A stretch of DNA of 64,000 nt from a bacterium (GTDB taxonomy: Bacteria; Joyebacterota; Joyebacteria; Joyebacterales; Joyebacteraceae): contig JAPEKQ010000002.1 in NCBI GenBank assembly GCA_029990205.1, positions 32,845 to 96,844 on the forward strand. The letters run 5' to 3'. Under the pieces are notes generated by a model. The model had not been told where the DNA came from and did not search any database. It was given only the letters and a program-made list of their open reading frames with translations. The number at the start of each line of letters is the position of its first letter. The first letter of the stretch is position 1. The translations under genes and the position numbers were made by a program. Positions 2,485 through 58,829 of this stretch are shown piece by piece.

Positions 2485-4008
2485 ATGAGACGCATCCCGC
2501 TCGCCGCCGCGCTTGCGCTGTTCGGCCTCGTGATCGTATCGCCGCCGCGGTCGGCCGCCGGCTCGCTGGCTCCATCCGATCCGCCGCCGACCGTCACCGG
2601 GGCGGCGGCATCGGCCGTGGCGTGGCCGCGGACCGCGGTCGTGATCGACGGACGTTTCGAGGACTGGCAGGCAATCGAGCCGGTGTGGAACGACAACGCC
2701 GGCGACGGGAAGGGCGGGGGGCGCGGCATCGACCTGGGACGGCTCTGGGCGGCCAGCGACGCGGAGCGCGTGTTCCTCTGCTTCGAGACGGGACTCGAGA
2801 TGGGGCTCCAGGGCGGGAACGATGTCGCGCTTCTCATCGACGGCGATGACAGTATCTCCACGGGCATCGACAGACTCGGAATGGGCGTCGATCTCATCTG
2901 GCGCTTCGGGCAGCGCGAAGGCGCCGTCTACTCCAGTTCCGGCGCCAGGCGGCGCATCGAGCAGTCCGACGTCGGTCTGAGGCAGGGTCCGACCGTGACG
3001 TCGCCGGTGTTCGAGATCTCGCTCCTCCGCTCGGCGCTCCCGCCGGGCGATGCCATCCGCGTCTGCATCACCACGGGATCACAGGCGGGCAGCGATCGCC
3101 TCCCCGACACCGAGGGCGGAGTCCGTATCGCGCTCTCGGACGCCGCACCCGTGATCGCGCACACGCGCTCGCTCGACCGCGAGCACCCAGACGATCTCCG
3201 CGTCTTGACCTACAACGTGCTCTTCGATGGTCTGTTCAAGCGGCCGGCGCCGTTCATTCGCCTCCTGCGCGCGATCGATCCGGACGTCGTCTGCTTCCAG
3301 GAGATCTGGTCGCACTCCGCGCAGCAGGCCGTCGACCAGGTCAACCTCGCGCTCCCCGGCGGGGCCCCTTGGTACGGAGGAAGCACCGAGGACGGACTCA
3401 TCGTCAGCCGCTACCCGATCATCGACAACCAGTCGGTGGACGACGCGGGGAACCACTGGGCGCTGATCGACCTTCCCGAGGATGTCTACGGCGCGGACCT
3501 CTCGCTGATAAGCGCGCATCCGCCGTGCTGCGACAACGAACAGGGGCGTCAGGAGGAGCTCGACGGCATCGCGGCGTGGATGCGCGAACTCAAGCGCGGA
3601 GGCGACTCGGGCATCGCGACGGGCACCTTCATCGTGATCGCCGGTGACATGAACCTCGTGGGCTCGTCGGAGCAGGTCGAGACGCTCGTTGCGGGAGTCA
3701 TCGGTGACGAGGAACGGTTCGGACGAACGGTCTCGCCCGACTGGGACGGCACGGCGCTGACCGACGCGTCCCCGCTCCACATCGGCGGGCGTGAAGGATA
3801 TACGTGGCGAGACGACACGAGCCGGTTCGCGCCGGGGAAGCTCGACTACATCGTGTACTCCGACAGCGTGATGGAGATGACGGGCGGGTTCGTCCTCAGG
3901 ACGGAGGACCTGCCACGCGAGATGCTCGTGCGGTACGGACTCCGGGCGTCGGACACCGGAGAGGCGTCCGACCATCTTCCCGTAGTCGCCGACTTCACAC
4001 GTCGCTAG
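2485..4008 (+). CDS. Secreted endonuclease/exonuclease/phosphatase (EEP) family protein with an N-terminal extension
   Basis: Signal peptide MRRIPLAAALALFGLVIVSPPRSAAGS. The EEP core runs from LTYNVLFDG...VCFQEI to DHLPVVADF at the C-terminus. AAGGAG RBS lies 7 nt upstream. Confidence 0.8.
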   Translation: MRRIPLAAALALFGLVIVSPPRSAAGSLAPSDPPPTVTGAAASAVAWPRTAVVIDGRFEDWQAIEPVWNDNAGDGKGGGRGIDLGRLWAASDAERVFLCFETGLEMGLQGGNDVALLIDGDDSISTGIDRLGMGVDLIWRFGQREGAVYSSSGARRRIEQSDVGLRQGPTVTSPVFEISLLRSALPPGDAIRVCITTGSQAGSDRLPDTEGGVRIALSDAAPVIAHTRSLDREHPDDLRVLTYNVLFDGLFKRPAPFIRLLRAIDPDVVCFQEIWSHSAQQAVDQVNLALPGGAPWYGGSTEDGLIVSRYPIIDNQSVDDAGNHWALIDLPEDVYGADLSLISAHPPCCDNEQGRQEELDGIAAWMRELKRGGDSGIATGTFIVIAGDMNLVGSSEQVETLVAGVIGDEERFGRTVSPDWDGTALTDASPLHIGGREGYTWRDDTSRFAPGKLDYIVYSDSVMEMTGGFVLRTEDLPREMLVRYGLRASDTGEASDHLPVVADFTRR

Positions 4009-4013
4009 CGGGC

Positions 4014-4721
4014 TCAGTCGCCTCGCTGAGCGAGGCGCATCAGCATCATCCGGATGACGAGAGTCTGGTCCTCGGCGGGAATGTCGATGACCGCGTCCGC
4101 GAGCGCCCTGAGCGTCGCCGCGTCCGGAACACCGCTCGGCTCGAGTTCGTTCTCCTCCTGGAAGCTCACCAGGGCAAGCACCGCCTCCGCGTCCCACTCC
4201 CCCATCCCGTAGTTCACGTCCAGCCCGAGCGCCGACATCACCGACTTGATGAAGACACGCTCCTCGTACTCCAGCTCCAGCGGGAGCGACGGCGCATCCG
4301 CGATCACGATCTGCGCCGGGTCCTCGACGACGATCTGCGGCTTCCCCTTGTACTCGACGATGGTCCCGGTCACGCAGATGCGGCGGCCGTCGAAGAGCGC
4401 CTCTGGCTCATCCTCGAAGAGCCCCCTCGTCGAACCCCAGATGACGACCGTGAACAGCTGGTCGGGGTACGGACGGCCGAGATTCAGGAAGGTCGGCGTG
4501 CCGCCGGTGCGGCCGAGATACGCAGCGCTGGCGACGGTCCCGCAGACGGTGGCGTCCGCACCCACATGCGCCGCCGCGTCCTCCACCTCGATGACGAGGT
4601 CCCCTGCGACAGCCGTGCACGGCGCGACCGCGCCGACGAAGGTCAGCGAGAGAATCGCCACGACGACGGTCATCACTGAGGCCGCCGAGCCGTTGGCCGG
4701 GTGTGTTCTGTTCCGCTTCAT
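4014..4721 (-). CDS. Hypothetical membrane-anchored protein: OB-fold-like region plus a C-terminal peptidoglycan-binding-like domain
   Basis: N-terminal TM/signal segment (VMTVVVAILSLTFVGAVA). Segment ICVTGTIVEYKGKPQIVVEDPAQIVI. C-terminus ...SGVPDAATLRALADAV is PG_binding_1-like. GGGAGG RBS. Confidence 0.55.
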   Translation of the reverse strand: MKRNRTHPANGSAASVMTVVVAILSLTFVGAVAPCTAVAGDLVIEVEDAAAHVGADATVCGTVASAAYLGRTGGTPTFLNLGRPYPDQLFTVVIWGSTRGLFEDEPEALFDGRRICVTGTIVEYKGKPQIVVEDPAQIVIADAPSLPLELEYEERVFIKSVMSALGLDVNYGMGEWDAEAVLALVSFQEENELEPSGVPDAATLRALADAVIDIPAEDQTLVIRMMLMRLAQRGD

Positions 4722-6187
4722 GAATCCTCCCTCTTGGCTGCTGCTTCGATGAGTTCACCCACGATCCGTGGATCCGCCCTGCCGCCGGTCTCCGCCATGA
4801 CCTGACCAACAAGGAATCGTACGAGTTTGCGTTCGCCACGCCGGAGTCGCGCGAGTTCGCCCGGGTTGGCTTCGAGCACGGACGCGACGATCGTCGCGAG
4901 TTCGGCCTCGTCCGAGAGCTGCGCCAGATCGAGACGCCGGACGAGATCGGCAAGCGGTTCATCGGAATCGATCGCGTGACCGAGCAGCGTCTTCGCGGCC
5001 GTCTCCGTCAGTCCCCCGCTCGCGCGCAGGGCGACAAGTTCCGCCAGTCTCGCCGCGGGAAGCCGCGAGCCGAGCAGATCGTCCATCGACAGCCCGCGTT
5101 CGTGCGCCAGACCGCGGAGCGGCCCGACGAACCACTTCGCGCACGCGGGGCCGGCCGCTTCGGCATCACCGAGATCGAAAGAGCCGATGGCGCGCACCAT
5201 CTCCCCGAAGTACTCGACCTCGTACCGTTCGTCGGCGATGACGGACGAGATGTCCTCCGACAGACCGTAGCGGTCGCGGAGCCGTGCGCGAGCGGCTCCC
5301 GGAAGTTCGGGCACGTTCGCTCGAAGCTCCTCGACCTTCTCTGCGGGGATGATGACATCGGGAAGGTCCGGCTCGCGGAAGTACCGGTAGTCGGACGCCT
5401 CCTCCTTCGAACGCATCGGCGAGGCGACGCCCGCGCGTTCGTCCCACAACAGAGTCTGGTGCGTGACGCGCCCCCCTCCGTCGAGCACCGAGTTCTGTCG
5501 CTCGACTTCGCGCTCGAGCGCGCGGCGGATCGATCGGAACGAATTGAGATTCTTGATCTCGCACGGCGTCCCGGGCGCGCGATCCTCCCCGGCGAGCGAC
5601 ACGTTCGTGTCGAAGCGCAGACTACCCTCGTGCATCCTCCCGCTCGTGACGCCGCAGTAGACCAGGACACGCCGGATCTCCTCGGCGAACGCAACCGCGT
5701 CGTCAACGCTCGTGAGATCGGGCTGCGTGACGATCTCGAGCAGCGGCACCCCGCAGCGGTTCATGTCGACGAGGCTCGGCCGACCGGGACGATGCGCCGT
5801 CTTCCCCGCGTCCTCCTCGATGTGAAGCTGTCTGAATCCGACGCGGAACGTTCGTCCTCCCGTTTCGACGGCAAGACCTCCCCCGGTCGCGAGCGGCCGG
5901 GTGTCCTGCGTGATCTGATAGCCCTTGGGAAGGTCAGGATAGAAGTAGCTCTTCCGGGCGAACGACGACCGGCCCGCGACCGTCGCGTCGACAGCGAGCG
6001 CCGCTACGATGCCGAGCTCGACGACGCGTTCGTTGAGCACCGGAAGGGCACCAGGCAGCCCGAGGCAGACGGGACAGACCCGCGAGTTCGGCTCGCCTCC
6101 GACGCCGTTCGCGCACGCGCAGAAGATCTTCGAGCGCGTCGCCAGCTGCGCGTGGACTTCGAACCCTATAACCGGGGTGCGCGTCAT
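4718..6187 (-). CDS. gatB: Asp-tRNA(Asn)/Glu-tRNA(Gln) amidotransferase subunit B
   Basis: MTRTPVIGFEVHAQLATRSKIFCAC...CPVCLGLPG..., typical GatB. The ATG at 6185-6187 overlaps the gatA stop (ATGA). The upstream part of the track ORF is an out-of-gene extension. Confidence 0.95.
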   Translation of the reverse strand: MTRTPVIGFEVHAQLATRSKIFCACANGVGGEPNSRVCPVCLGLPGALPVLNERVVELGIVAALAVDATVAGRSSFARKSYFYPDLPKGYQITQDTRPLATGGGLAVETGGRTFRVGFRQLHIEEDAGKTAHRPGRPSLVDMNRCGVPLLEIVTQPDLTSVDDAVAFAEEIRRVLVYCGVTSGRMHEGSLRFDTNVSLAGEDRAPGTPCEIKNLNSFRSIRRALEREVERQNSVLDGGGRVTHQTLLWDERAGVASPMRSKEEASDYRYFREPDLPDVIIPAEKVEELRANVPELPGAARARLRDRYGLSEDISSVIADERYEVEYFGEMVRAIGSFDLGDAEAAGPACAKWFVGPLRGLAHERGLSMDDLLGSRLPAARLAELVALRASGGLTETAAKTLLGHAIDSDEPLADLVRRLDLAQLSDEAELATIVASVLEANPGELARLRRGERKLVRFLVGQVMAETGGRADPRIVGELIEAAAKREDS

Positions 6188-27140: not shown

Positions 27141-28895
27141 CTAGTAGTCCTCGGGCTGCACGTCCTTGAGGCGGAGCTGCAGGTTCGTCTCCCCACGCCA
27201 GGTATTCTCCTCGAGCACGTAGGCGAGCGACACCATGAACGAGCTGTCGCGCATCTCGCTCCTGAGCTCTCTGTATGCCTCGGCCATGCCGAAGCCGATC
27301 ACGTCCATGACCCGGCCCTCCTGCGATACGCGCATCCGCAGATGGCCGTTGCCGACGGTCTTCGCGTCCTCGACCTTCACGCGCCGCGTTCCGAACACCG
27401 GCTCGGGGTTGCCCGCGCCGAACGGCCGGAGCTTCTGAAGCTGGTGCACGAGGTCGAACGTGCAGTTGGGCAGGCGGATCTCGCCATCGATATCGATGAC
27501 GGCGACGAGGTCGTCGGCTGTGAGCTTCGCGGACACGGCCTTCTCAACACAGTCGCGGAACTCCTCGAGACGTTCCTCCGCCAGAGAAACGCCGGCGGCG
27601 TGCTGGTGGCCGCCGAAGCTGTCGAGGAAGTGCCTGCAGGATATCAGCGCGGCGTGCAGGTCGAACCCCGGAATGCTCCGGCCCGAGCCCTTCGCCATGC
27701 CGTCGGTGATCGAAAGAAGGATCGTCGGTCGGTTGTGCTGCTTGGCGATGCGCGAGGCCACGATGCCGATAACGCCCGGGTGCCAGCCGGAAGACCAGAG
27801 AACGATCGAGCGCGTGTTCACGAGGTCGATCTGCTCGGCGAGCATCCGCTCGGCGTCTTCGAGCACCTGGCGTTCGAGTTCGCGCCGCTTGCGGTTCTCG
27901 CCATCGAGCTGCTGGGCGATGCGTCCGGCCAGCGCGGTGTCGTCGGTCGTGAGAAGCTCGACGCCGATGCTGGCGTCACCCAGTCTACCCGCCGCGTTGA
28001 GACGCGGACCCAGCGCGAAGCCGATGTGCGCGGCACGCGCGCTCGCCGGCTCGACCTTCGCCACGTCCATGAGAGCGGCGAGGCCCGCGTTCCCGGTGTT
28101 GCGCAGGCGCTCCAGGCCGAGTGCCGTGAGGATCCGGTTCTCGGACCTGAGCGGGACGATGTCCGCAACGGTCCCGACGGCCACGAGGTCGAGATTCTCC
28201 TCGACGGTGTAGGCGAGCTCGCGGTAGTCGCGGGCAAGCGCCTCGAGCACCTTGAAGGCGACTCCGACGCCGGCGAGATCCTTGTACGGGTACTTCGAGT
28301 CCTTGCGCTTCGGGTCGACCACGGCGAGCGCGTCGGGAAGCGTCTCCTGCGGCTCGTGGTGGTCGGTCACGATGACGTCGAGTCCCATCTCGTTCGCGAG
28401 CGAGACCTGCTCGTGCCCGGTCACACCGCTGTCGACGGTGACGATGAGCTTGGCGCCGACGTCGCGTGCGAGCTTCACACCGCGGTCGGACAACCCGTAC
28501 CCCTCGTCGAGACGGTTCGGGATGTAGAAGTCGACGCGGCAGCCGACGGATTCGAGACACCGCTTCATCAGCACGATGGAGGTGATGCCGTCGACGTCAT
28601 AGTCGCCGCAGACGAAGATGCCTTCCTTGTTGTCAACGGCGCGGCGGAGTCTCTCGAGCGCCGGGTCGATGTCCGGAAGGAGGAAGGGGTCACAGAGCGC
28701 GGAGCGATCGGGTCTGAGGAACGCCGCGGCGTCCGCCTGCGTCACCACACCGCGGCTGGCAAGAATGGCGGCGAAGGCCGGGTGGACCTGAAGTTCCTCG
28801 GCGAGCGAGACGGCATGGGCCGATGCATCGCTGTCCGGGAGTATCCATCGCTTCCGTACGAACACGTGCGTTCCCTTCGTCAGTGTTGACGTCAT
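27141..28895 (-). CDS. recJ: Single-stranded-DNA-specific exonuclease RecJ
   Basis: DHH motifs ...IFVCGDYDVDGITS..., ...VIVTDHHEP... The ATG at 28895 (MTSTLTKGTHVF) is chosen because the longer track ORF would run through rnpB. Confidence 0.88.
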   Translation of the reverse strand: MTSTLTKGTHVFVRKRWILPDSDASAHAVSLAEELQVHPAFAAILASRGVVTQADAAAFLRPDRSALCDPFLLPDIDPALERLRRAVDNKEGIFVCGDYDVDGITSIVLMKRCLESVGCRVDFYIPNRLDEGYGLSDRGVKLARDVGAKLIVTVDSGVTGHEQVSLANEMGLDVIVTDHHEPQETLPDALAVVDPKRKDSKYPYKDLAGVGVAFKVLEALARDYRELAYTVEENLDLVAVGTVADIVPLRSENRILTALGLERLRNTGNAGLAALMDVAKVEPASARAAHIGFALGPRLNAAGRLGDASIGVELLTTDDTALAGRIAQQLDGENRKRRELERQVLEDAERMLAEQIDLVNTRSIVLWSSGWHPGVIGIVASRIAKQHNRPTILLSITDGMAKGSGRSIPGFDLHAALISCRHFLDSFGGHQHAAGVSLAEERLEEFRDCVEKAVSAKLTADDLVAVIDIDGEIRLPNCTFDLVHQLQKLRPFGAGNPEPVFGTRRVKVEDAKTVGNGHLRMRVSQEGRVMDVIGFGMAEAYRELRSEMRDSSFMVSLAYVLEENTWRGETNLQLRLKDVQPEDY

Positions 28896-28927
28896 CGACC
28901 CCGGAAGATCACCGGACTCGATGTTCA

Positions 28928-29307
28928 GAGCTGCAGCAGACCGTAAGCCGAGTTCTGTCGGAAGGCGAACCTTCCGCGACGACCATTCATCTGGGACGCC
29001 GGTTACCCGACGCCTCAAGCGACCCACCCGGGAGTTCTAGCGAAGCGGGCAGCTTCTCCTCCCCTACTTGGTCTCGCTCCGGACGGGGTTTACCTAGCTG
29101 CCCCCGTCACCGGGGGCACTGGTGGGCTCTTACCCCACCTTTTCACCCTTGCCGGGGAACCGCAAGCGGCACCCTTAGGCGGTCTACCTTTCTGCGGCAC
29201 TTTCCTTAGGATCACTCCCACTGGGCGTTACCCAGCGTCCTGCCCTCTGGAGCTCGGACTTTCCTCGGACGGACACGTCCGTCCGCGGTCGCCTGGCCTA
29301 CTGCATT
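28928..29307 (-). ncRNA. rnpB: RNase P RNA, bacterial type A
   Basis: Minus strand reads ...CGAGGAAAGUCCGAGCUCCAGAGGGCAGG..GGGUAACGCCCAGUGGGAG...AGGAAAGUGCCGCAGAAA...GGUAAGAGCCCACCAGUGCCC...CAGAUGAAUGGUCGUCGC...ACAGAACUCGGCUUACGGUCUGCUGC. P1 helix GCAGUAGGCC/GGUCUGCUGC. Ends are approximate to within 5 nt. Confidence 0.92.
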
Positions 29308-52819: not shown

Positions 52820-53347
52820 TTAGAACCTGACCTCGAATCCGACGCGGAAGCCGTCTCCGCGCGCGGCGGGAGATGCGGCGACCGCCGCGTCCAGCCCGCC
52901 CGGGGTGTTGTCATCGAAGCCCGAGAGATGTGCGTCGACGTACGCATCCGTGATGCTGTAGAGCGCGAGGATGGCCGTCCACCAGATCAGTGTCTGTCTT
53001 CTGTCGAAGTGCTCCGAGTATTCCTCGAAATAGTCGTTGTCGCCCGTCTCGTAGTAGTTCCTGAGCGCGTAGCGGGTCCAGCGATCCTCCAGAACGAGCT
53101 GAGCGATCAGCAGGGCCTCCACGCCGCCGATGATGGCGGCCTTGCGCTCGGTCCCGTTGAGAAACTGACCGAGCCCCGGGTAGGCTGCCGACGCGATGAG
53201 AACCCTCGCGCCGCCCGGCCTTGTGGACGCCGCCTCCTGCCCCGTCACCGCCCCTTGCCGCGTGACCGACCCCTGCCCCATCGCGACCGCCGGAACCAGT
53301 ATCGCGACTGCGAGCACGAGCACGAGTGCGGCGGGACCGGTTCTCAT
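52820..53347 (-). CDS. Hypothetical secreted/membrane protein, DUF5683-like (YPGLGQ motif)
   Basis: Signal peptide MRTGPAALVLVLAVAILVPAVAMG, then ...AAYPGLGQFLNG... Stop/start overlaps the upstream gene by 1 nt. Confidence 0.5.
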   Translation of the reverse strand: MRTGPAALVLVLAVAILVPAVAMGQGSVTRQGAVTGQEAASTRPGGARVLIASAAYPGLGQFLNGTERKAAIIGGVEALLIAQLVLEDRWTRYALRNYYETGDNDYFEEYSEHFDRRQTLIWWTAILALYSITDAYVDAHLSGFDDNTPGGLDAAVAASPAARGDGFRVGFEVRF

Positions 53348-54318
53348 CAGATCGCGAGCTCCTTGACGCGCCGGGAGGTGAACGGCTCAACCACGAACTC
53401 CGCGGGCTCGGCGTCACCACCCCAGCAGCGGACGCGGATGCTCTCGCCCTCCTCGGTGTCCGCGTAGCGCGCGACCAGTCGCGAGGACATCTCAAGGTTC
53501 TCCGGGGTCGGTTCGCCCCGGAAGACGCCGACCGGCCCCTTGTGCTCCACGGCCTTGATGAACATCACACCTTCGGACTCGAGTTCAAAGAGCCGCTCGT
53601 TCTCCGCGTGGTTGCGCCCGACGATGAGCTTCGCGGTATCCGTGAGCCGGAACTGCCGCCCCATCGAGATCAGCCGGACATCGACCGATGAGAGCGCCCC
53701 GTGCTTCCTGACATCCTTCAGAGCTCTCGCGAAGTTCTCGTCGGTCAGAAGGCAACCGCCGGCCGGCGAGGCGTACCGTTCGATGCCGAACTGCTCGGCC
53801 AGCTCGATCTGCGGCTTCCGGGTCCGCCCGTGGAGACCGAGGAGCTTCTCCCGGTCGACCCATCCCTCGAGCTCCGGCACCGTCGGCGCCAGGAGCTTCG
53901 CGGACAGCGGCCTGAGCAGGCGCCCCCCGATCCCGGACTCGCGCTCGACGGCGCCGAGTCCGAACCGCATCTGCGACTTCGGGCGCTGACCGACGACCTC
54001 GCCGGTGACGATGAAGGAGGCCCCGAGCTCCTCGAGCTTGCCGGCGGCCGTCTTGACCATCATCGCGTGGCAGTCGATGCACGGGTTCATGTGCTTGCCG
54101 TACCCGTGCTTCGGCGCCTCGATCGTTCGGAAGATCTCCTCGGTGATATCGATGACGACGAGCTCGATACCGAGCTCCTCCGCACCGATCTTCGCTCCTC
54201 CCGCACCGAAGAACGGCGAGACGAAGCTCACGCCTATCACCTCGATGCCCTGTTCCATGATCAGACGGGCAGCGAGCAGGCTGTCGAGCCCACCAGAGAG
54301 AAGCGCCAGGGCCTTCAC
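53347..54318 (-). CDS. PP-loop ATP-pyrophosphatase, MnmA/ThiI-like tRNA thiouridylase paralogue
   Basis: (GTG) VKALALLSGGLDSLLAARL... (SGGxDS PP-loop). ...HMNPCIDCHAMMVKTA... aligns with the MnmA NPDILCNKE catalytic-Cys region. ...RLLRPLSAKLL... is ThiI-like. ...SPAGGCLLTDENF... aligns with the MnmA second catalytic Cys. GGAGG RBS 9 nt upstream of the GTG at 54318. The longer track ORF would run through the tRNA-Sec gene. Confidence 0.75.
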   Translation of the reverse strand: MKALALLSGGLDSLLAARLIMEQGIEVIGVSFVSPFFGAGGAKIGAEELGIELVVIDITEEIFRTIEAPKHGYGKHMNPCIDCHAMMVKTAAGKLEELGASFIVTGEVVGQRPKSQMRFGLGAVERESGIGGRLLRPLSAKLLAPTVPELEGWVDREKLLGLHGRTRKPQIELAEQFGIERYASPAGGCLLTDENFARALKDVRKHGALSSVDVRLISMGRQFRLTDTAKLIVGRNHAENERLFELESEGVMFIKAVEHKGPVGVFRGEPTPENLEMSSRLVARYADTEEGESIRVRCWGGDAEPAEFVVEPFTSRRVKELAI

Positions 54319-54349
54319 TAGTTGGAGCCTCCGAAACGTGAAATGGTTG

Positions 54350-54448
54350 TGGCGGGAATGTGTGGGAATCGAACCCACCCCGGACGGGATTAACCGCCCA
54401 GCATAAGGGTTTGAAGCCCTCGGGGCCCACCAGGACCCATCCATCCCC
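54350..54448 (-). tRNA. selC: tRNA-Sec (selenocysteine tRNA, anticodon UCA), 99 nt with CCA encoded
   Basis: Minus strand GGGGATGG-AT-GGGTCC-TGGT-GGGCCC-C-GAGGG-CTTCAAA-CCCTT-(long variable arm ATGCTGGGCGGTTAATCCCGTCCGG)-GGTGGG-TTCGATT-CCCAC-ACATTCCC-G-CCA. 8-bp acceptor stem with one terminal mismatch, 6-bp D-stem with 4-nt loop, UCA anticodon. Located 135 nt downstream of the Sec-containing selD. Confidence 0.75.
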
Positions 54449-54582
54449 GCATATCGGTGCGTCCGGCGGATGGCCGGACGTGTCCGTCTGCGACCGGGCA
54501 TGTCCGGTCCCGGACCGGACTCTACGAAGCAGTATAACCGACAAGTGCCGCGCGAGCTAGCGCGGGGCGCACGCCCTGCGGG

Positions 54583-55626
54583 CTAGCGCAGGGAGATGGG
54601 GTGCGGTCCCTGGGGTCTGACGCGGCCGATACGCCACCAGCCGGCCTCGTCCACGGCCATCTCCCGCTCGAAGACCGGGAGCGCGTCCTCGGGAAGCGCC
54701 ACCAGGAGTCCGCCAGAGGTCTGCGGATCGAATGTCAGTTCGGTGACCACGGTGTCCGCTGTCTCGATCGAGACGCGAGGCGAGTAGAAGTGCCGGTTGG
54801 TGCCCAGACCGCCCGGGGCGATCCCGTCAGCACAGAGCTCGCGTGCCCCATCCATCAACGGGAGTTCGGCGGCGTCGATCTCGATGGTCACGCCGCTCCC
54901 CTCGGCCATCTCGAGCGCGTGTCCTATCAGACCGAAACCCGTGACGTCGGTCGCCGCATGCGCGCCGGCGGCGATCATCGCGCGCGAAGCCGACCGGTTG
55001 AGCGTCGCCATCTGCTCGGTGAGCGCGCCCACCGTCTCCGCCGGCACCCGCTCGAACTTGATGCCGGTCGCGATCACGCCCGTCCCGAGCGGCTTCGTGA
55101 GGACCATCACATCACCCGGCGTCGCGCCCACGTTCGACACGATGCGATCCGGGTGGATGGTTCCGACGACGGCCATCCCGAACTTGAGTTCCTGATCGCT
55201 CACCGAGTGCCCGCCGATCGTCAGGACCCCGGCCTCGAGCGCCTTCTTCTGTGCGCCGGCGAGAATGTCACCGAGCACGGCGTTGGGAAGATCGCCGTCC
55301 GGGAAGCAGACGATGTTGAGCCCGATGAGCGGCGTGCCGCCCATCGCGTAGACATCGGAGATGGAGTTGGCCGCGGCCACGCGGCCGAAGTCGAACGGAT
55401 CGTCGACAACGGGCGTGAAGAAGTCGAGCGTGAACACCAGCGCGGTGTCGTCGTTAAGACGATACACCCCGGCGTCGTCCGCCGTGCTCGTCGAGACGAG
55501 GACGCGCGGATCCACGATCGGCGCAAGGCCCTTGAGCGCTTCGGCGAGGTCCTCCGGACCCAGCTTGGATGCTCAACCAGAGCAGCGGACCTTCTGGGTC
55601 AGCTTGTAGATCTCTTCACGAGACAC
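54583..55626 (-). CDS. selD: Selenide, water dikinase (selenophosphate synthetase) with an in-frame UGA selenocysteine codon at 55573-55575
   Basis: GTG start at 55626 (AGGAGA RBS overlapping the glmS stop). It reads VSREEIYKLTQKVRCSG-U(TGA)-ASKLGPEDLAEALKGLAPIVDPRVLVSTSTADDAGVYRLNDDTALVFTLDFFTPVVDDPFDFGRVAAANSISDVYAMGG... This aligns with E. coli SelD ...SHGAGCGCKISPKVLETIL...DDAAVY...[30 protein letters not shown]. The ORF track shows only the part downstream of the UGA (54583..55515). Confidence 0.85.
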
Positions 55627-55634
55627 GCTGTCTC

Positions 55635-57464
55635 CTATTCAACCGTCACGCTCTTGGCGAGATTGCGCGGCTGATCGACATCGCACCCTCGCAGCACGGC
55701 GATGTAGTACGCCAGCAGCTGGAGCGGCACGACCGCGAGCAGCGGCATGAGATGGGGCAGGGTATCGGGAACCTCCAACACGTCGTCGGCGATCCTGGCG
55801 ACCTCGGTGTCGCCCTCGGTCGCGATGGCGAGCACCCGCCCGCCGCGCGACTTCACCTCCTCCATGTTCGAGAGGATCTTCTCGTAGAACGGGTCCTGCG
55901 TCGCGATGAACACGACCGGCATCTTCTCGTCGATGAGCGCGATCGGACCGTGCTTCATCTCGGCGGCCGGGTAGCCCTCGGCGTGGATGTAACTGATCTC
56001 CTTGAGCTTCAGAGCGCCCTCGAGCGCGACCGGGAAGTTGTAGCCGCGGCCGAGGTACAGGAAGTTCTGGTGGCCCGCGTACTTCTCGGCGATCTTCTCG
56101 ACCTTGCCGCTCTGCCCCAGGATATCCCCGATCTGACTCGGAATGTCGAGCATGGCGCGGACGATCCGGCGACCGTCGATGACGGAGATGCTGTGCGCGC
56201 GGCCGACCGAGAGCGCGATCGCGGCCAGAACCATGACCTGCGATGTGAAGGCCTTGGTCGAAGCCACCCCGATCTCGGGGCCGGCGTGCGTGTAGACTCC
56301 GCCGTCGCTCTGACGAGCGATCGACGAGCCGACGACGTTGACGATGCCGAGCGTGGTGCCGCCGCGCCGCTGGACCTCCCCCATCGCCGCGAGCGTGTCG
56401 CGCGTCTCACCGGACTGACTGATGACGATGGCGAGGTCGCCCGGGTTGATGACAGGGTTGCGGTAGCGGAACTCGGAGGCGTACTCGACCTCGACCGAGA
56501 CCCTGGCGAGATCCTCGAGCATGTACTCGCCGATGAGTCCCGAGTGCCAGGAGGTCCCGCACGCGAGGATGAGGATCCTCTCGGCCTTCTTGAGCGCATC
56601 GCGATGCTCCCGGAGCCCTCCGAGAAACGCGTCGCCCGACGCCTCGATGAGCCGGCCGCGTACGGCGTCCATGACCGTCCGCTCCTGCTCATTGATCTCC
56701 TTGAGCATGTAATGCGGGTAGCCGTTCTTCTGCATCTGATCGACGTCCCACGTGATCCGCTCGACGTCCTTGGTGATAGAGACGTTCTGGAGCGTCGTGG
56801 TGGAGAATCCGTCCGGCGTCGCCACGACCATCTCGCGGTCGTCGAGGTAGACGACGTCCTTCGTGTGACGGACGAGCGCGGCGACGTCGGAGGCGACGAA
56901 GTAGCCCTCGCGCCCGATGCCGACGATGAGCGGGCTGCCGTTCCTCGCGGCGACGAGCATCTCCGGCTCGTCGGCGTGGATGGCCGCGATGCCGTACGCG
57001 CCGTGAACCCCCGCGAGCGCTGCGCGAACCGCCGCGGCAAGGTCGCCCGTGTAGTACTTCTCGATGAGGTGCGCGAGGACCTCGGTATCGGTCTCCGTCT
57101 GGAACGAGTGTCCCTCGGTCTCGAGCTGCCGCCTCAGAGGACGGTAGTTCTCGACGATGCCGTTGTGGACGACCGCGATCTTGCCGGTGCTGTCCGAGTG
57201 AGGATGGGCGTTCATCGCCGACGGCTCCCCGTGGGTCGCCCACCGCGTGTGCGCGATGCCGGTGCCGCCGATGACCGGGTCGCCGGACAGCACGCCCGCG
57301 AGCGCCTCGATCTTGCCGACCGTCTTCCGGACGTCAACGCGACCGTCATGCAGAACGGCGACACCCGCGCTGTCGTAGCCGCGGTACTCCATCCGGCGCA
57401 GACCCTCAACGAGAGTCGGCACCATGTCGTCCTTCCTCGTCACGCATCCGATGATCCCGCACAT
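55635..57464 (-). CDS. glmS: Glutamine--fructose-6-phosphate aminotransferase (isomerising)
   Basis: MCGIIGCVTRKDDMVPTLVEGLRRMEYRGYDSAGVAVL... (Ntn Cys2) and two SIS domains. Confidence 0.95.
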   Translation of the reverse strand: MCGIIGCVTRKDDMVPTLVEGLRRMEYRGYDSAGVAVLHDGRVDVRKTVGKIEALAGVLSGDPVIGGTGIAHTRWATHGEPSAMNAHPHSDSTGKIAVVHNGIVENYRPLRRQLETEGHSFQTETDTEVLAHLIEKYYTGDLAAAVRAALAGVHGAYGIAAIHADEPEMLVAARNGSPLIVGIGREGYFVASDVAALVRHTKDVVYLDDREMVVATPDGFSTTTLQNVSITKDVERITWDVDQMQKNGYPHYMLKEINEQERTVMDAVRGRLIEASGDAFLGGLREHRDALKKAERILILACGTSWHSGLIGEYMLEDLARVSVEVEYASEFRYRNPVINPGDLAIVISQSGETRDTLAAMGEVQRRGGTTLGIVNVVGSSIARQSDGGVYTHAGPEIGVASTKAFTSQVMVLAAIALSVGRAHSISVIDGRRIVRAMLDIPSQIGDILGQSGKVEKIAEKYAGHQNFLYLGRGYNFPVALEGALKLKEISYIHAEGYPAAEMKHGPIALIDEKMPVVFIATQDPFYEKILSNMEEVKSRGGRVLAIATEGDTEVARIADDVLEVPDTLPHLMPLLAVVPLQLLAYYIAVLRGCDVDQPRNLAKSVTVE

Positions 57465-58829
57465 CTATGCTCTTCCTTCCCCGGAGCCTCCGAGAGCCTT
57501 CTCGGCTCTCGTCGCGAGCGCGTCCGCGCCATCGGCATCCGGCGCTTCGGCGATAACACGTACGATCGGCTCCGTGTTCGAAGGGCGTACGTGGACCCAT
57601 CTGTCGGCCCACGAGATCTTGACTCCATCGGTCCGGTCGATCTCTCCACCGGTCAGTACGGCGACCAGCGCACTCTCCAGCTCGGCGGTCGACCGGGTCG
57701 CCGCCGGGAGCTTCCTTTTCACGATCGCATAGGGCGTGAGCTCGCGCACGAGCTCTCCGACGGTCGCCACGCCTCTGCGGGCCATGTGCGACACGATGAG
57801 CGCCACCGCCGTCGCCGCGTCGCGGCCGGGCTGCACGTCCGGCAGCACGACCCCACCGTTCCCCTCACCTCCCACGACGGCTGAGACCTCGAACATCTTC
57901 TCCACAACGTTCGCTTCGCCCACCGCCGTGCGATGAACGTTCACCCCGTACGAGGCTGCGACGTCGTCCATCATCCGACTCGTCGAGACATTGGTCACCA
58001 CGGGGCCCGGCGTGGTCGCAAGCACCGCACCGGTCGCGAGCGCCAGCGTGAACTCTTCACCGACGGCCAGACCGGTCTCGTCGACGATGGCGAGACGGTC
58101 CGCGTCCGGATCACACGCAAAGCCTGCCGCCGCACCGGTCTCACGGACGCGATCCCCGAGCGCCGTGAGGCTCTCGGGGACAGGCTCCGCCACACGCGGG
58201 AACCCTGTGCCGACCTCGGTGAACACCTCGACGACCTCGCACCCGAGCCTCCGCAGAAGCTGCGGGAGGATCACCGAACCCGCCGCGTTGCAGCAGTCGA
58301 CGACGATTCGAGGAGCCGCGTCGGCCACGGCGGCGCGGTCCACGTGCTGTGTGTCCAGAACCAGCTCGATGTGTGTCCTGATCGCGTCGGCGGTCTCCGG
58401 CGCAACCTCCGGGTCCGGGCACGGCGCCGCGGCTCTTCCCGCGAGCGCGTCGGCGGCGTCGAAGATCCGTTCGCCTTCCTCGCGCGTCACGAACACGCCG
58501 GAGCCCGAGAAGAACTTCAGGCCGTTGTACTCCCCCGGATTGTGACTCGCGGTGATGCAGATGCCGCCCGCGCATCCCCGGGTGCGGACGGCCACACCGA
58601 CGGTCGGGGTCGGCACGATACCGAGCTGGACCGGCGTCACACCGGCGATGAGAAGTCCCTGGACGACGGCCGCCTCGAGCGCGTCTCCGCCCGGGCGGGA
58701 GTCCCACCCGACCGCGACGCGGCCACCGGCGAGCTCTCCGAATGCGCGCGCGTGCCGTCGCGCGATGTTCTCATCGAGGTCACGCGGCACGATCCCGCGC
58801 ACACCCGCAACACTCCTGATAAGCGTCAA
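57465..58829 (-). CDS. glmM: Phosphoglucosamine mutase / alpha-D-phosphohexomutase family (glmM-like)
   Basis: ...SVAGVRGIV... Active-site ...ICITASHNPGEYNGLKFF... TTG start with GGGAGG RBS. Lies directly upstream of glmS on the same strand. Confidence 0.85.
   Translation of the reverse strand: MTLIRSVAGVRGIVPRDLDENIARRHARAFGELAGGRVAVGWDSRPGGDALEAAVVQGLLIAGVTPVQLGIVPTPTVGVAVRTRGCAGGICITASHNPGEYNGLKFFSGSGVFVTREEGERIFDAADALAGRAAAPCPDPEVAPETADAIRTHIELVLDTQHVDRAAVADAAPRIVVDCCNAAGSVILPQLLRRLGCEVVEVFTEVGTGFPRVAEPVPESLTALGDRVRETGAAAGFACDPDADRLAIVDETGLAVGEEFTLALATGAVLATTPGPVVTNVSTSRMMDDVAASYGVNVHRTAVGEANVVEKMFEVSAVVGGEGNGGVVLPDVQPGRDAATAVALIVSHMARRGVATVGELVRELTPYAIVKRKLPAATRSTAELESALVAVLTGGEIDRTDGVKISWADRWVHVRPSNTEPIVRVIAEAPDADGADALATRAEKALGGSGEGRA

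Follow-up and report, generated by a model that had tools for sequence, protein, structure and literature searches.

Selenophosphate synthetase (SelD; selenide, water dikinase; TIGR00476) is a selenoprotein family that has been verified experimentally; its motif is UxxK, where U is selenocysteine (Sec), and it is the second most widespread selenoprotein family of prokaryotes (2026 review, PMC13188914). FdhA and SelD were also described as the most widespread bacterial selenoproteins by Zhang et al. (2006, PMC1794560), and the notion that making a Sec-containing SelD itself requires selenium is long-standing and not new (PMC1794560). Sec-type SelD is listed in the literature for Geobacter, Desulfovibrio, Syntrophus, Moorella and Clostridium species, among others. 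Synthesis of the Cys-type SelD of E. coli (3U0O) is independent of the Sec machinery because Cys17 has a normal codon. Here we analyse a selD gene interrupted by an in-frame TGA and the neighbouring tRNA-Sec gene (selC). They lie on a stretch of 64,000 nucleotides (nt), called the window below, of contig JAPEKQ010000002.1 (assembly GCA_029990205.1, positions 32,845 to 96,844 of the forward strand) from a bacterium of the GTDB family Joyebacteraceae (Joyebacterota).

We read the locus, with a probability of about 0.92, as a Sec-type selD, in which UGA at codon 18 encodes the catalytic Sec, accompanied by selC, that is, as two parts of the bacterial Sec system. The gene resembles known Sec-type SelD (TIGR00476) in several respects: the family is assigned by the equivalog model with the AIRS/AIRS_C architecture, the Sec occupies the position of E. 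coli Cys17 and is followed three residues on by an invariant Lys, and the UGA, close to the 5′ end, is followed at a short distance by a hairpin. It differs from them in its host, which belongs to an uncultured lineage near Candidatus (Ca.) Eisenbacteria.

The mechanical open reading frame (ORF) for selD, 54583..55515, has a product of 310 amino acids (aa). Upstream, the same frame reads G*IGDS-VSREEIYKLTQKVRCSG*ASKLGPEDL... A first-pass annotation of the window, made by a model from the letters and a list of ORFs, had proposed that this truncated frame extends through the TGA at 55573-55575 to a GTG start with a ribosome-binding site, and all of its coordinates hold (Table 1); the GTG is 8 nt past the stop codon of glmS. 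With a Cys placeholder at residue 18, the restored 347-aa SelD scores 374.2 bits against the TIGR00476 equivalog model, whose cut-off is 125 bits, and the domains AIRS (PF00586) and AIRS_C (PF02769) are found on the called gene. The match joins SelD residues 8-314 to profile positions 1-309 of 311. Because it begins at residue 8 with profile position 1, the model needs the restored N-terminus. The same annotation had placed this N-terminus on the active-site loop of E. coli SelD, as is indeed observed: in a 229-bit alignment with 3U0O covering residues 4-315, U18 lines up with Cys17 and Lys21 with Lys20. A Cys is likewise aligned with residue 18 in the SelD chain of Aquifex aeolicus (2YYE/2ZOD). 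The catalytic loop and Lys20 of the E. coli enzyme are conserved in the window, but Ser stands where E. coli has Cys19, and an additional Cys lies three residues before Sec. This Cys at -3 is part of the loop C-S-G-U-A-S-K formed by residues 15-21 (55564-55584, minus strand).

To what extent the TGA is kept was seen in one scan of a species-representative genome collection, which returned 80 homologous loci. The codon aligned to it is TGA in 73, TGC in five and TGT in two, and the Lys at +3 from the Sec/Cys position is invariant in 80/80. The closest species, four metagenome-assembled genomes (MAGs) of uncultured bacteria (L001-L004), encode SelD proteins that are 86, 81, 79 and 66% identical to that of the window and use the same GTG start. 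A TGC or TGT in close orthologues would have spoken for a misread codon; all four carry TGA, within an identical KLTQKVRCSG*ASKLGPEDL context flanked by synonymous changes on both sides. In the five members of the clade (the window and L001-L004), eight of the 17 codons that precede the TGA (2, 3, 4, 9, 10, 12, 16 and 17) vary synonymously only, and amino acid differences occur at two positions only. From this synonymous-only variation within codons 2-17 it follows that the stretch before the TGA is translated, in frame with the remainder of selD.

These data bear directly on the possibility that the TGA is a true stop ending a 17-codon upstream ORF, with SelD starting at the downstream GTG at 55513-55515. 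Every automatic gene call on record does give the 310-aa product, and selA and selB were not located among the window ORFs or in the 10 kb past the selD end. A SelD starting there would, on the other hand, be without the loop aligned to E. coli Cys17 and Lys20, and residue 8 of the extended protein, where the TIGR00476 match starts, lies well before it. Protein-level conservation with synonymous variation is seen in five species for the 17 codons before the TGA and for codons 19-36, and the arrangement with a TGA in the loop recurs in 73/80 loci. We consider a true stop very improbable.

Independent assemblies were used to examine whether the TGA arose by an error of sequencing or assembly, or by a recent nonsense mutation that made selD a pseudogene. 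The region from selD to the tRNA is found with zero mismatches to the window in four of them: one MAG at NCBI (GCA_029990285.1, contig JAPEKT010000004.1) and three Logan assemblies made from different sequencing runs. Including the TGA, 1,321 nt could be compared for two of them and 1,306 nt for the other two. An identical GlmS protein is present on 15 contigs from several assemblies. Nothing beyond the bare stop codon speaks for an error or a pseudogene. Against it, in addition to the agreement of assemblies over 1,306-1,321 nt, the TGA is kept in four species at 66-86% protein identity and in 73/80 loci overall, and selD carries no other disruption. This explanation of the TGA is effectively refuted.

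The second component is the tRNA. The first-pass annotation had described a minus-strand RNA with a UCA anticodon as a probable tRNA-Sec, and two independent methods, ARAGORN and Rfam, now call it as such. ARAGORN finds three tRNA genes in the whole window, one of which is tRNA-SeC at 54350-54448 (minus strand, anticodon tca). The Rfam tRNA-Sec model RF01852 matches 54354-54448 with 70.0 bits (E = 3e-12), that is, 23 bits above its gathering score of 47 bits. The D-stem has 6 base pairs (bp), the D-loop is UGGU, the variable-arm stem has 8 bp and the T-stem 5 bp, and the discriminator base is G. The fold was examined on an alignment of nine tRNA-Sec genes: those of the window and L001-L004, of one MAG each from Eisenbacteria and Chitinophagales, and of two Clostridia. 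Standard pairs occupy 96.4% of the cells of the cloverleaf, with compensatory changes, counted pairwise, at 14 pairs; the D helix is 97.9% and the variable-arm helix 98.4% paired, with seven compensatory pairs. None of 500 shuffles reached the observed values and slid registers paired only 43-60% of cells, so the cloverleaf is not due to chance. A tRNA-Sec directly downstream of selD is also present in L001-L004, L056, L065 and L079. Its placement downstream of selD had been noted before and stands; the spacer had been given as 135 nt and is actually 134 nt (54449-54582).

One of these loci, L056 from a Ca. Eisenbacteria MAG, encodes a Cys-type SelD, with TGC at 4046-4048, and still has the tRNA-Sec directly downstream (5065-5162). 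This looks like a replacement of Sec by Cys in an organism that retains the Sec tRNA.

Taken together, the tRNA-Sec calls, the SelD alignment, the TGA in orthologues and the agreement of assemblies support the earlier view that the organism decodes UGA as Sec. In bacteria the decoding signal, the Sec insertion sequence (SECIS), is looked for as a hairpin close to the UGA. The constraints of bSECISearch, as quoted in PMC13188914, are an apical loop of 3-9 nt, an upper stem of 4-16 bp, a G as first or second loop nucleotide, mostly with G or U after it, a distance of 16-37 nt from UGA to apical loop, and a free energy of -7.5 kcal/mol or lower. A candidate hairpin just past the TGA of the window lies within all of these published limits: its 3-nt loop GGA begins with GG, the stem has 6 bp, the UGA-to-loop distance is 17 nt and the predicted energy is -10.1 kcal/mol. 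The inner 6-bp helix spans 55547-55561 and begins 11 nt past the UGA. It shares with the E. coli fdhF SECIS and the bSECISearch model a helix just past the UGA and a small apical loop starting with GG; it differs from them by the absence of a bulged U and by the loop GGA instead of GGUC. A possible outer helix, UGAGC with GCUCA, would enclose the hairpin. It appears in the minimum-free-energy folds of the window, L001, L002 and L004, where 5/5 pairs are formed, and 4/5 pairs are formed in L003.

The codons underlying the hairpin are conserved beyond the protein. Codons identical in all five clade members make up 22.3% of the 188 comparable codons of selD, and the longest identical run in the gene, codons 23-26 (GGT CCG GAG GAC), is the hairpin core. 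With the 22.3% background, the chance that four named codons are all identical is about 0.0025. GGT is moreover a minority Gly codon here (120/678, ~18%). These synonymous sites point to a constraint at the RNA level.

An ungapped alignment of 74 Sec-type selD sequences was compared in different registers. A distal hairpin, pairing columns 30-35 with 41-46 around a GGUNC loop at +36 to +40, covaries clearly, with 66.7% of cells paired versus 23-48% in slid controls, and a covariation score of 0.345 versus at most 0.198. The proximal register, as in the window, shows a weak excess with 53.5% paired versus 44-47%; among lineages its columns 18 and 26 form U-A, C-G, G-C and A-U pairs. When classified by sequence, 34 of the 74 genes carry the distal hairpin, 24 the proximal one of the window type and eight a register 3 nt further downstream, and 14 have none of the three (the counts exceed 74 since six sequences carry two types). 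Lineages thus seem to differ in where this one orthologous gene has its SECIS. The loop of the proximal hairpin is at +21 to +23, roughly the position of the fdhF element, in the window clade and in about a third of the others, all without the distal one.

Several results weigh against our reading of the locus, and we discuss here those that concern the hairpin. Its z-score against dinucleotide shuffles is only -0.38. When the 11-16 codons after the UGA were resampled synonymously with the codon usage of the window genome, the fraction of resamples folding at least as well was 0.39 (36 nt), 0.32 (45 nt) and 0.80 (51 nt). The peptide G-P-E-D-L in a GC-rich genome yields such a hairpin almost for free. 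As there was no excess over either control, stability was dropped as evidence for a SECIS. Finally, the selD of the window forms only 3/6 of the distal pairs, and the distal hairpin with its GGUNC loop is absent.

It is accordingly conceivable that Sec is inserted as proposed and that the proximal hairpin is a by-product of the G-P-E-D-L peptide, the element recognized by SelB lying elsewhere, for example in the structure closed by UGAGC and GCUCA. Such a by-product would account for the comparable stability reached by chance on synonymous resampling and for the weak covariation of the proximal register in the 74 genes (53.5% versus 44-47%), and the outer helix is kept in 4/5 clade members. 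It would leave without explanation why no run of fully identical codons in selD is longer than the four of the core, and why columns 18 and 26 alternate between U-A, C-G, G-C and A-U among lineages; that every published bSECIS constraint is respected also argues against it. We regard it as possible, though the less likely option. We therefore keep the hairpin at 55544-55564 as the probable SECIS; the model is rated probable and not proven because the hairpin is no more stable than the synonymous-codon controls. Since the window has only 3/6 of the distal pairs, its clade appears to rely on the proximal hairpin. A tentative extension, rather doubtful at this stage, is that the SECIS moved during evolution within one orthologous gene, being distal in most of the Sec-type selD genes examined and proximal in the clade of the window and about a third of the others.

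The other unfavourable results concern the Sec machinery. Neither selA nor selB was found among 30 ORFs of the window scanned with NCBIfam or Pfam, all ORFs of SelA or SelB size included, nor in the 10 kb past the selD end of the window on the source contig. They are not beside selD in two Eisenbacteria loci either, where ORFs of 638 and 715 aa encode LepA. A scan of the window for a second selenoprotein gene, that is, for an in-frame TGA flanked on either side by coding signal, gave none that is real; its two matches were both rejected as antisense to real genes. SelA and SelB would then be encoded elsewhere in the genome. A weaker possibility is that SelD is the sole selenoprotein of the lineage and that the whole Sec machinery is retained solely for producing the enzyme that supplies it.

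There is also a departure in the tRNA. Like bacterial tRNA-Sec (RF01852), it has a UCA anticodon, a 6-bp D-stem with a 4-nt loop, a long variable arm, a 5-bp T-stem and a G discriminator, but its eighth acceptor pair is G.A instead of a standard pair. The acceptor/T domain thus consists of seven standard pairs, G.A at position 8 and then the 5-bp T-stem. Of the 8/5 fold drawn in the first-pass annotation, the 6-bp D-stem, 4-nt D-loop and long variable arm are found, and a standard eighth acceptor pair is not. The G.A apposition (54361 and 54441; tRNA positions 8 and 88) is shared by the clade of the window. Position 8 is non-standard in seven of eight distinct tRNA-Sec sequences, only the Chitinophagales one having a standard G-C. 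As the tRNA-Sec of Lutispora (L015) also has G.A and that of a Clostridiaceae MAG (L054) has G.G, a non-standard eighth pair is a common variant.

The non-standard pair and the failure to find selA or selB among the window ORFs and in the 10 kb past selD could be taken to favour another decoding of UGA: a genome-wide reassignment (tables 4 or 25), or reading by a non-Sec suppressor or allo-tRNA, residue 18 not being Sec. Long-arm tRNAs with a UCA anticodon other than tRNA-Sec have been described. Reassignment is contradicted by the gene ends of the window. Many genes, among them dnaG, lepB and the TPR gene, have TGA as their stop codon and a length usual for their family; UGA is therefore not reassigned genome-wide. 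The score of the tRNA, 23 bits over the RF01852 gathering score, and its expected 6-bp D-stem and 4-nt D-loop argue against a suppressor, and the recoded site is exactly the position where Sec and Cys alternate, with TGC or TGT in 7/80 loci. A residue other than Sec at this site appears highly unlikely.

Sec at codon 18 of SelD thus remains the preferred reading. The present analysis establishes what both genes are, where the UGA lies and that it is conserved, that the codons before it are translated, and how the tRNA is structured. From the arrangement of the locus, the following scheme can be proposed. Translation of selD would initiate at the GTG 8 nt past the glmS stop. At codon 18, the hairpin 11 nt downstream would recruit SelB with GTP and Sec-tRNA-Sec, the selC tRNA reading the UGA. 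Sec would be inserted instead of termination, and translation would run on through the AIRS/AIRS_C body. The resulting SelD would use selenide and ATP to make selenophosphate. As this product is itself the selenium donor for Sec-tRNA-Sec, synthesis of active SelD would depend on selenium supply, and we infer a feedback of selenium supply on SelD synthesis.

Among the 73 Sec-type relatives, a Cys is present in the loop at -3 (CxxU) in 26 and at +2 (UxC) in nine; 38 have neither and none has both. This mutual exclusion hints at alternative positions for a partner thiol.

Table 1. Features of the selD-selC locus, in window coordinates
Feature	Position	Strand	Description and evidence
Full-length selD CDS	54583..55626	(-)	347 codons + TAG stop (54583-54585); selenocysteine-type selenide, water dikinase
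selD start codon GTG	55624-55626	(-)	Identical in all five clade members
Shine-Dalgarno-like AGGAGA	55631-55636	(-)	4 nt before GTG, overlaps glmS stop 55635-55637; read directly, putative function
In-frame TGA, codon 18	55573-55575	(-)	Read as Sec (U of UxxK, here U-A-S-K); alignment, conservation, assemblies
Candidate SECIS GC-U-GGGUCC-[GGA]-GGACCU-C-GC	55544-55564	(-)	Predicted fold, -10.1 kcal/mol
Possible outer helix UGAGC (55571-55575) + GCUCA (55533-55537)	55533-55575	(-)	Encloses hairpin; weak evidence
selD/tRNA-Sec spacer, 134 nt	54449-54582	(-)	Conserved TAGC (54556-54559) and GGTTATACT; -10-like TATACT (54531-54536)
tRNA-Sec gene selC	54350-54448	(-)	Anticodon UCA at 54412-54414, CCA encoded; ARAGORN, Rfam RF01852, cloverleaf covariation

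Within the spacer between selD and the tRNA gene, the blocks TAGC and GGTTATACT (54531-54559, minus strand) are invariant or nearly so in the five clade members, the -10-like box being TATAAT in L002. The rest of the spacer is variable in sequence and in length (~70 to 170 nt). The conserved blocks may be a promoter for tRNA-Sec, located ~80 nt upstream of its 5′ end. Scans of 54200-55750 for a sigma-70 consensus promoter and for an intrinsic terminator found none. The entire spacer has an unusually good fold (z = -3.45) and contains a 9-bp perfect palindrome, GUCCGGUCC-G-GGACCGGAC, at 54502-54520 (minus strand). The palindrome was dropped as a conserved element, as the relatives do not keep it.

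The neighbours in the window are housekeeping genes: rpoD, dnaG, recJ, relA/spoT, mutS2, dnaK, grpE, hrcA, lepB and a gene for a DUF5683 protein. From there the order continues with a PP-loop + NFACT-R_2 gene, tRNA-Sec, selD, glmS, glmM, a TPR/BamD-like gene, pyrR and two ABC ATPases. The order glmM-glmS-selD-tRNA-Sec-PP-loop-DUF5683-lepB-hrcA is kept in L001-L004 and in part, as glmM-glmS-selD-tRNA-Sec, in two Ca. Eisenbacteria MAGs.

The PP-loop gene (53347-54318, minus strand) lies 31 nt downstream of tRNA-Sec and encodes a 323-aa protein with a ThiI/MnmA-like PP-loop domain at the N-terminus and an RNA-binding NFACT-R_2 domain at the C-terminus. The protein, which sources name variously ThiI, MnmA/TrmU or DUF814 protein, belongs to a very large family and is below all curated NCBIfam cut-offs (best 42.5 versus 251 bits). 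A functional link of this gene to selD and tRNA-Sec is unsupported: the genes are adjacent in L001-L004 only and the PP-loop gene is absent at the other 76 loci. Its nearest named homologues are from Ca. Eisenbacteria (63-67% identity), and for this reason the organism is probably allied to that group.

Other observations were made elsewhere in the window. Bacterial class A RNase P RNA was found at 28929-29304 (minus strand, 296.5 bits). It shares ~100 nt with the longest recJ ORF (27141-29027), in which only residues from 83 onwards match the RecJ model; the true recJ start is therefore further downstream. The phosphoglucosamine mutase encoded upstream of glmS (57465-58829, minus strand) is matched by the archaeal-type GlmM model TIGR03990 with 445 bits (cut-off 439), and by the bacterial GlmM model with 193.5 bits, far under its cut-off of 447.55. 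An ORF of 507 aa at 2485-4008 (plus strand) has a good codon-position GC pattern and no NCBIfam match at E <= 1e-5.

Concerning the significance of the locus, the biology lies within the established bacterial Sec system, and the locus is a standard one that is mis-annotated. In the searched literature, there is no mention of selenocysteine in connection with Ca. Eisenbacteria. On the contigs examined, the public gene calls contain the 310-aa SelD without its catalytic loop and do not list the tRNA-Sec. Relying on them to infer selenium use would give a wrong picture of the enzyme; the value here is a corrected annotation. If the proximal and distal hairpins are both functional, selD genes would form a natural series for the tolerance of SelB to relocation of the SECIS. 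For the organism itself, the locus extends Sec decoding, at the confidence stated above, to an uncultured lineage allied to Ca. Eisenbacteria.

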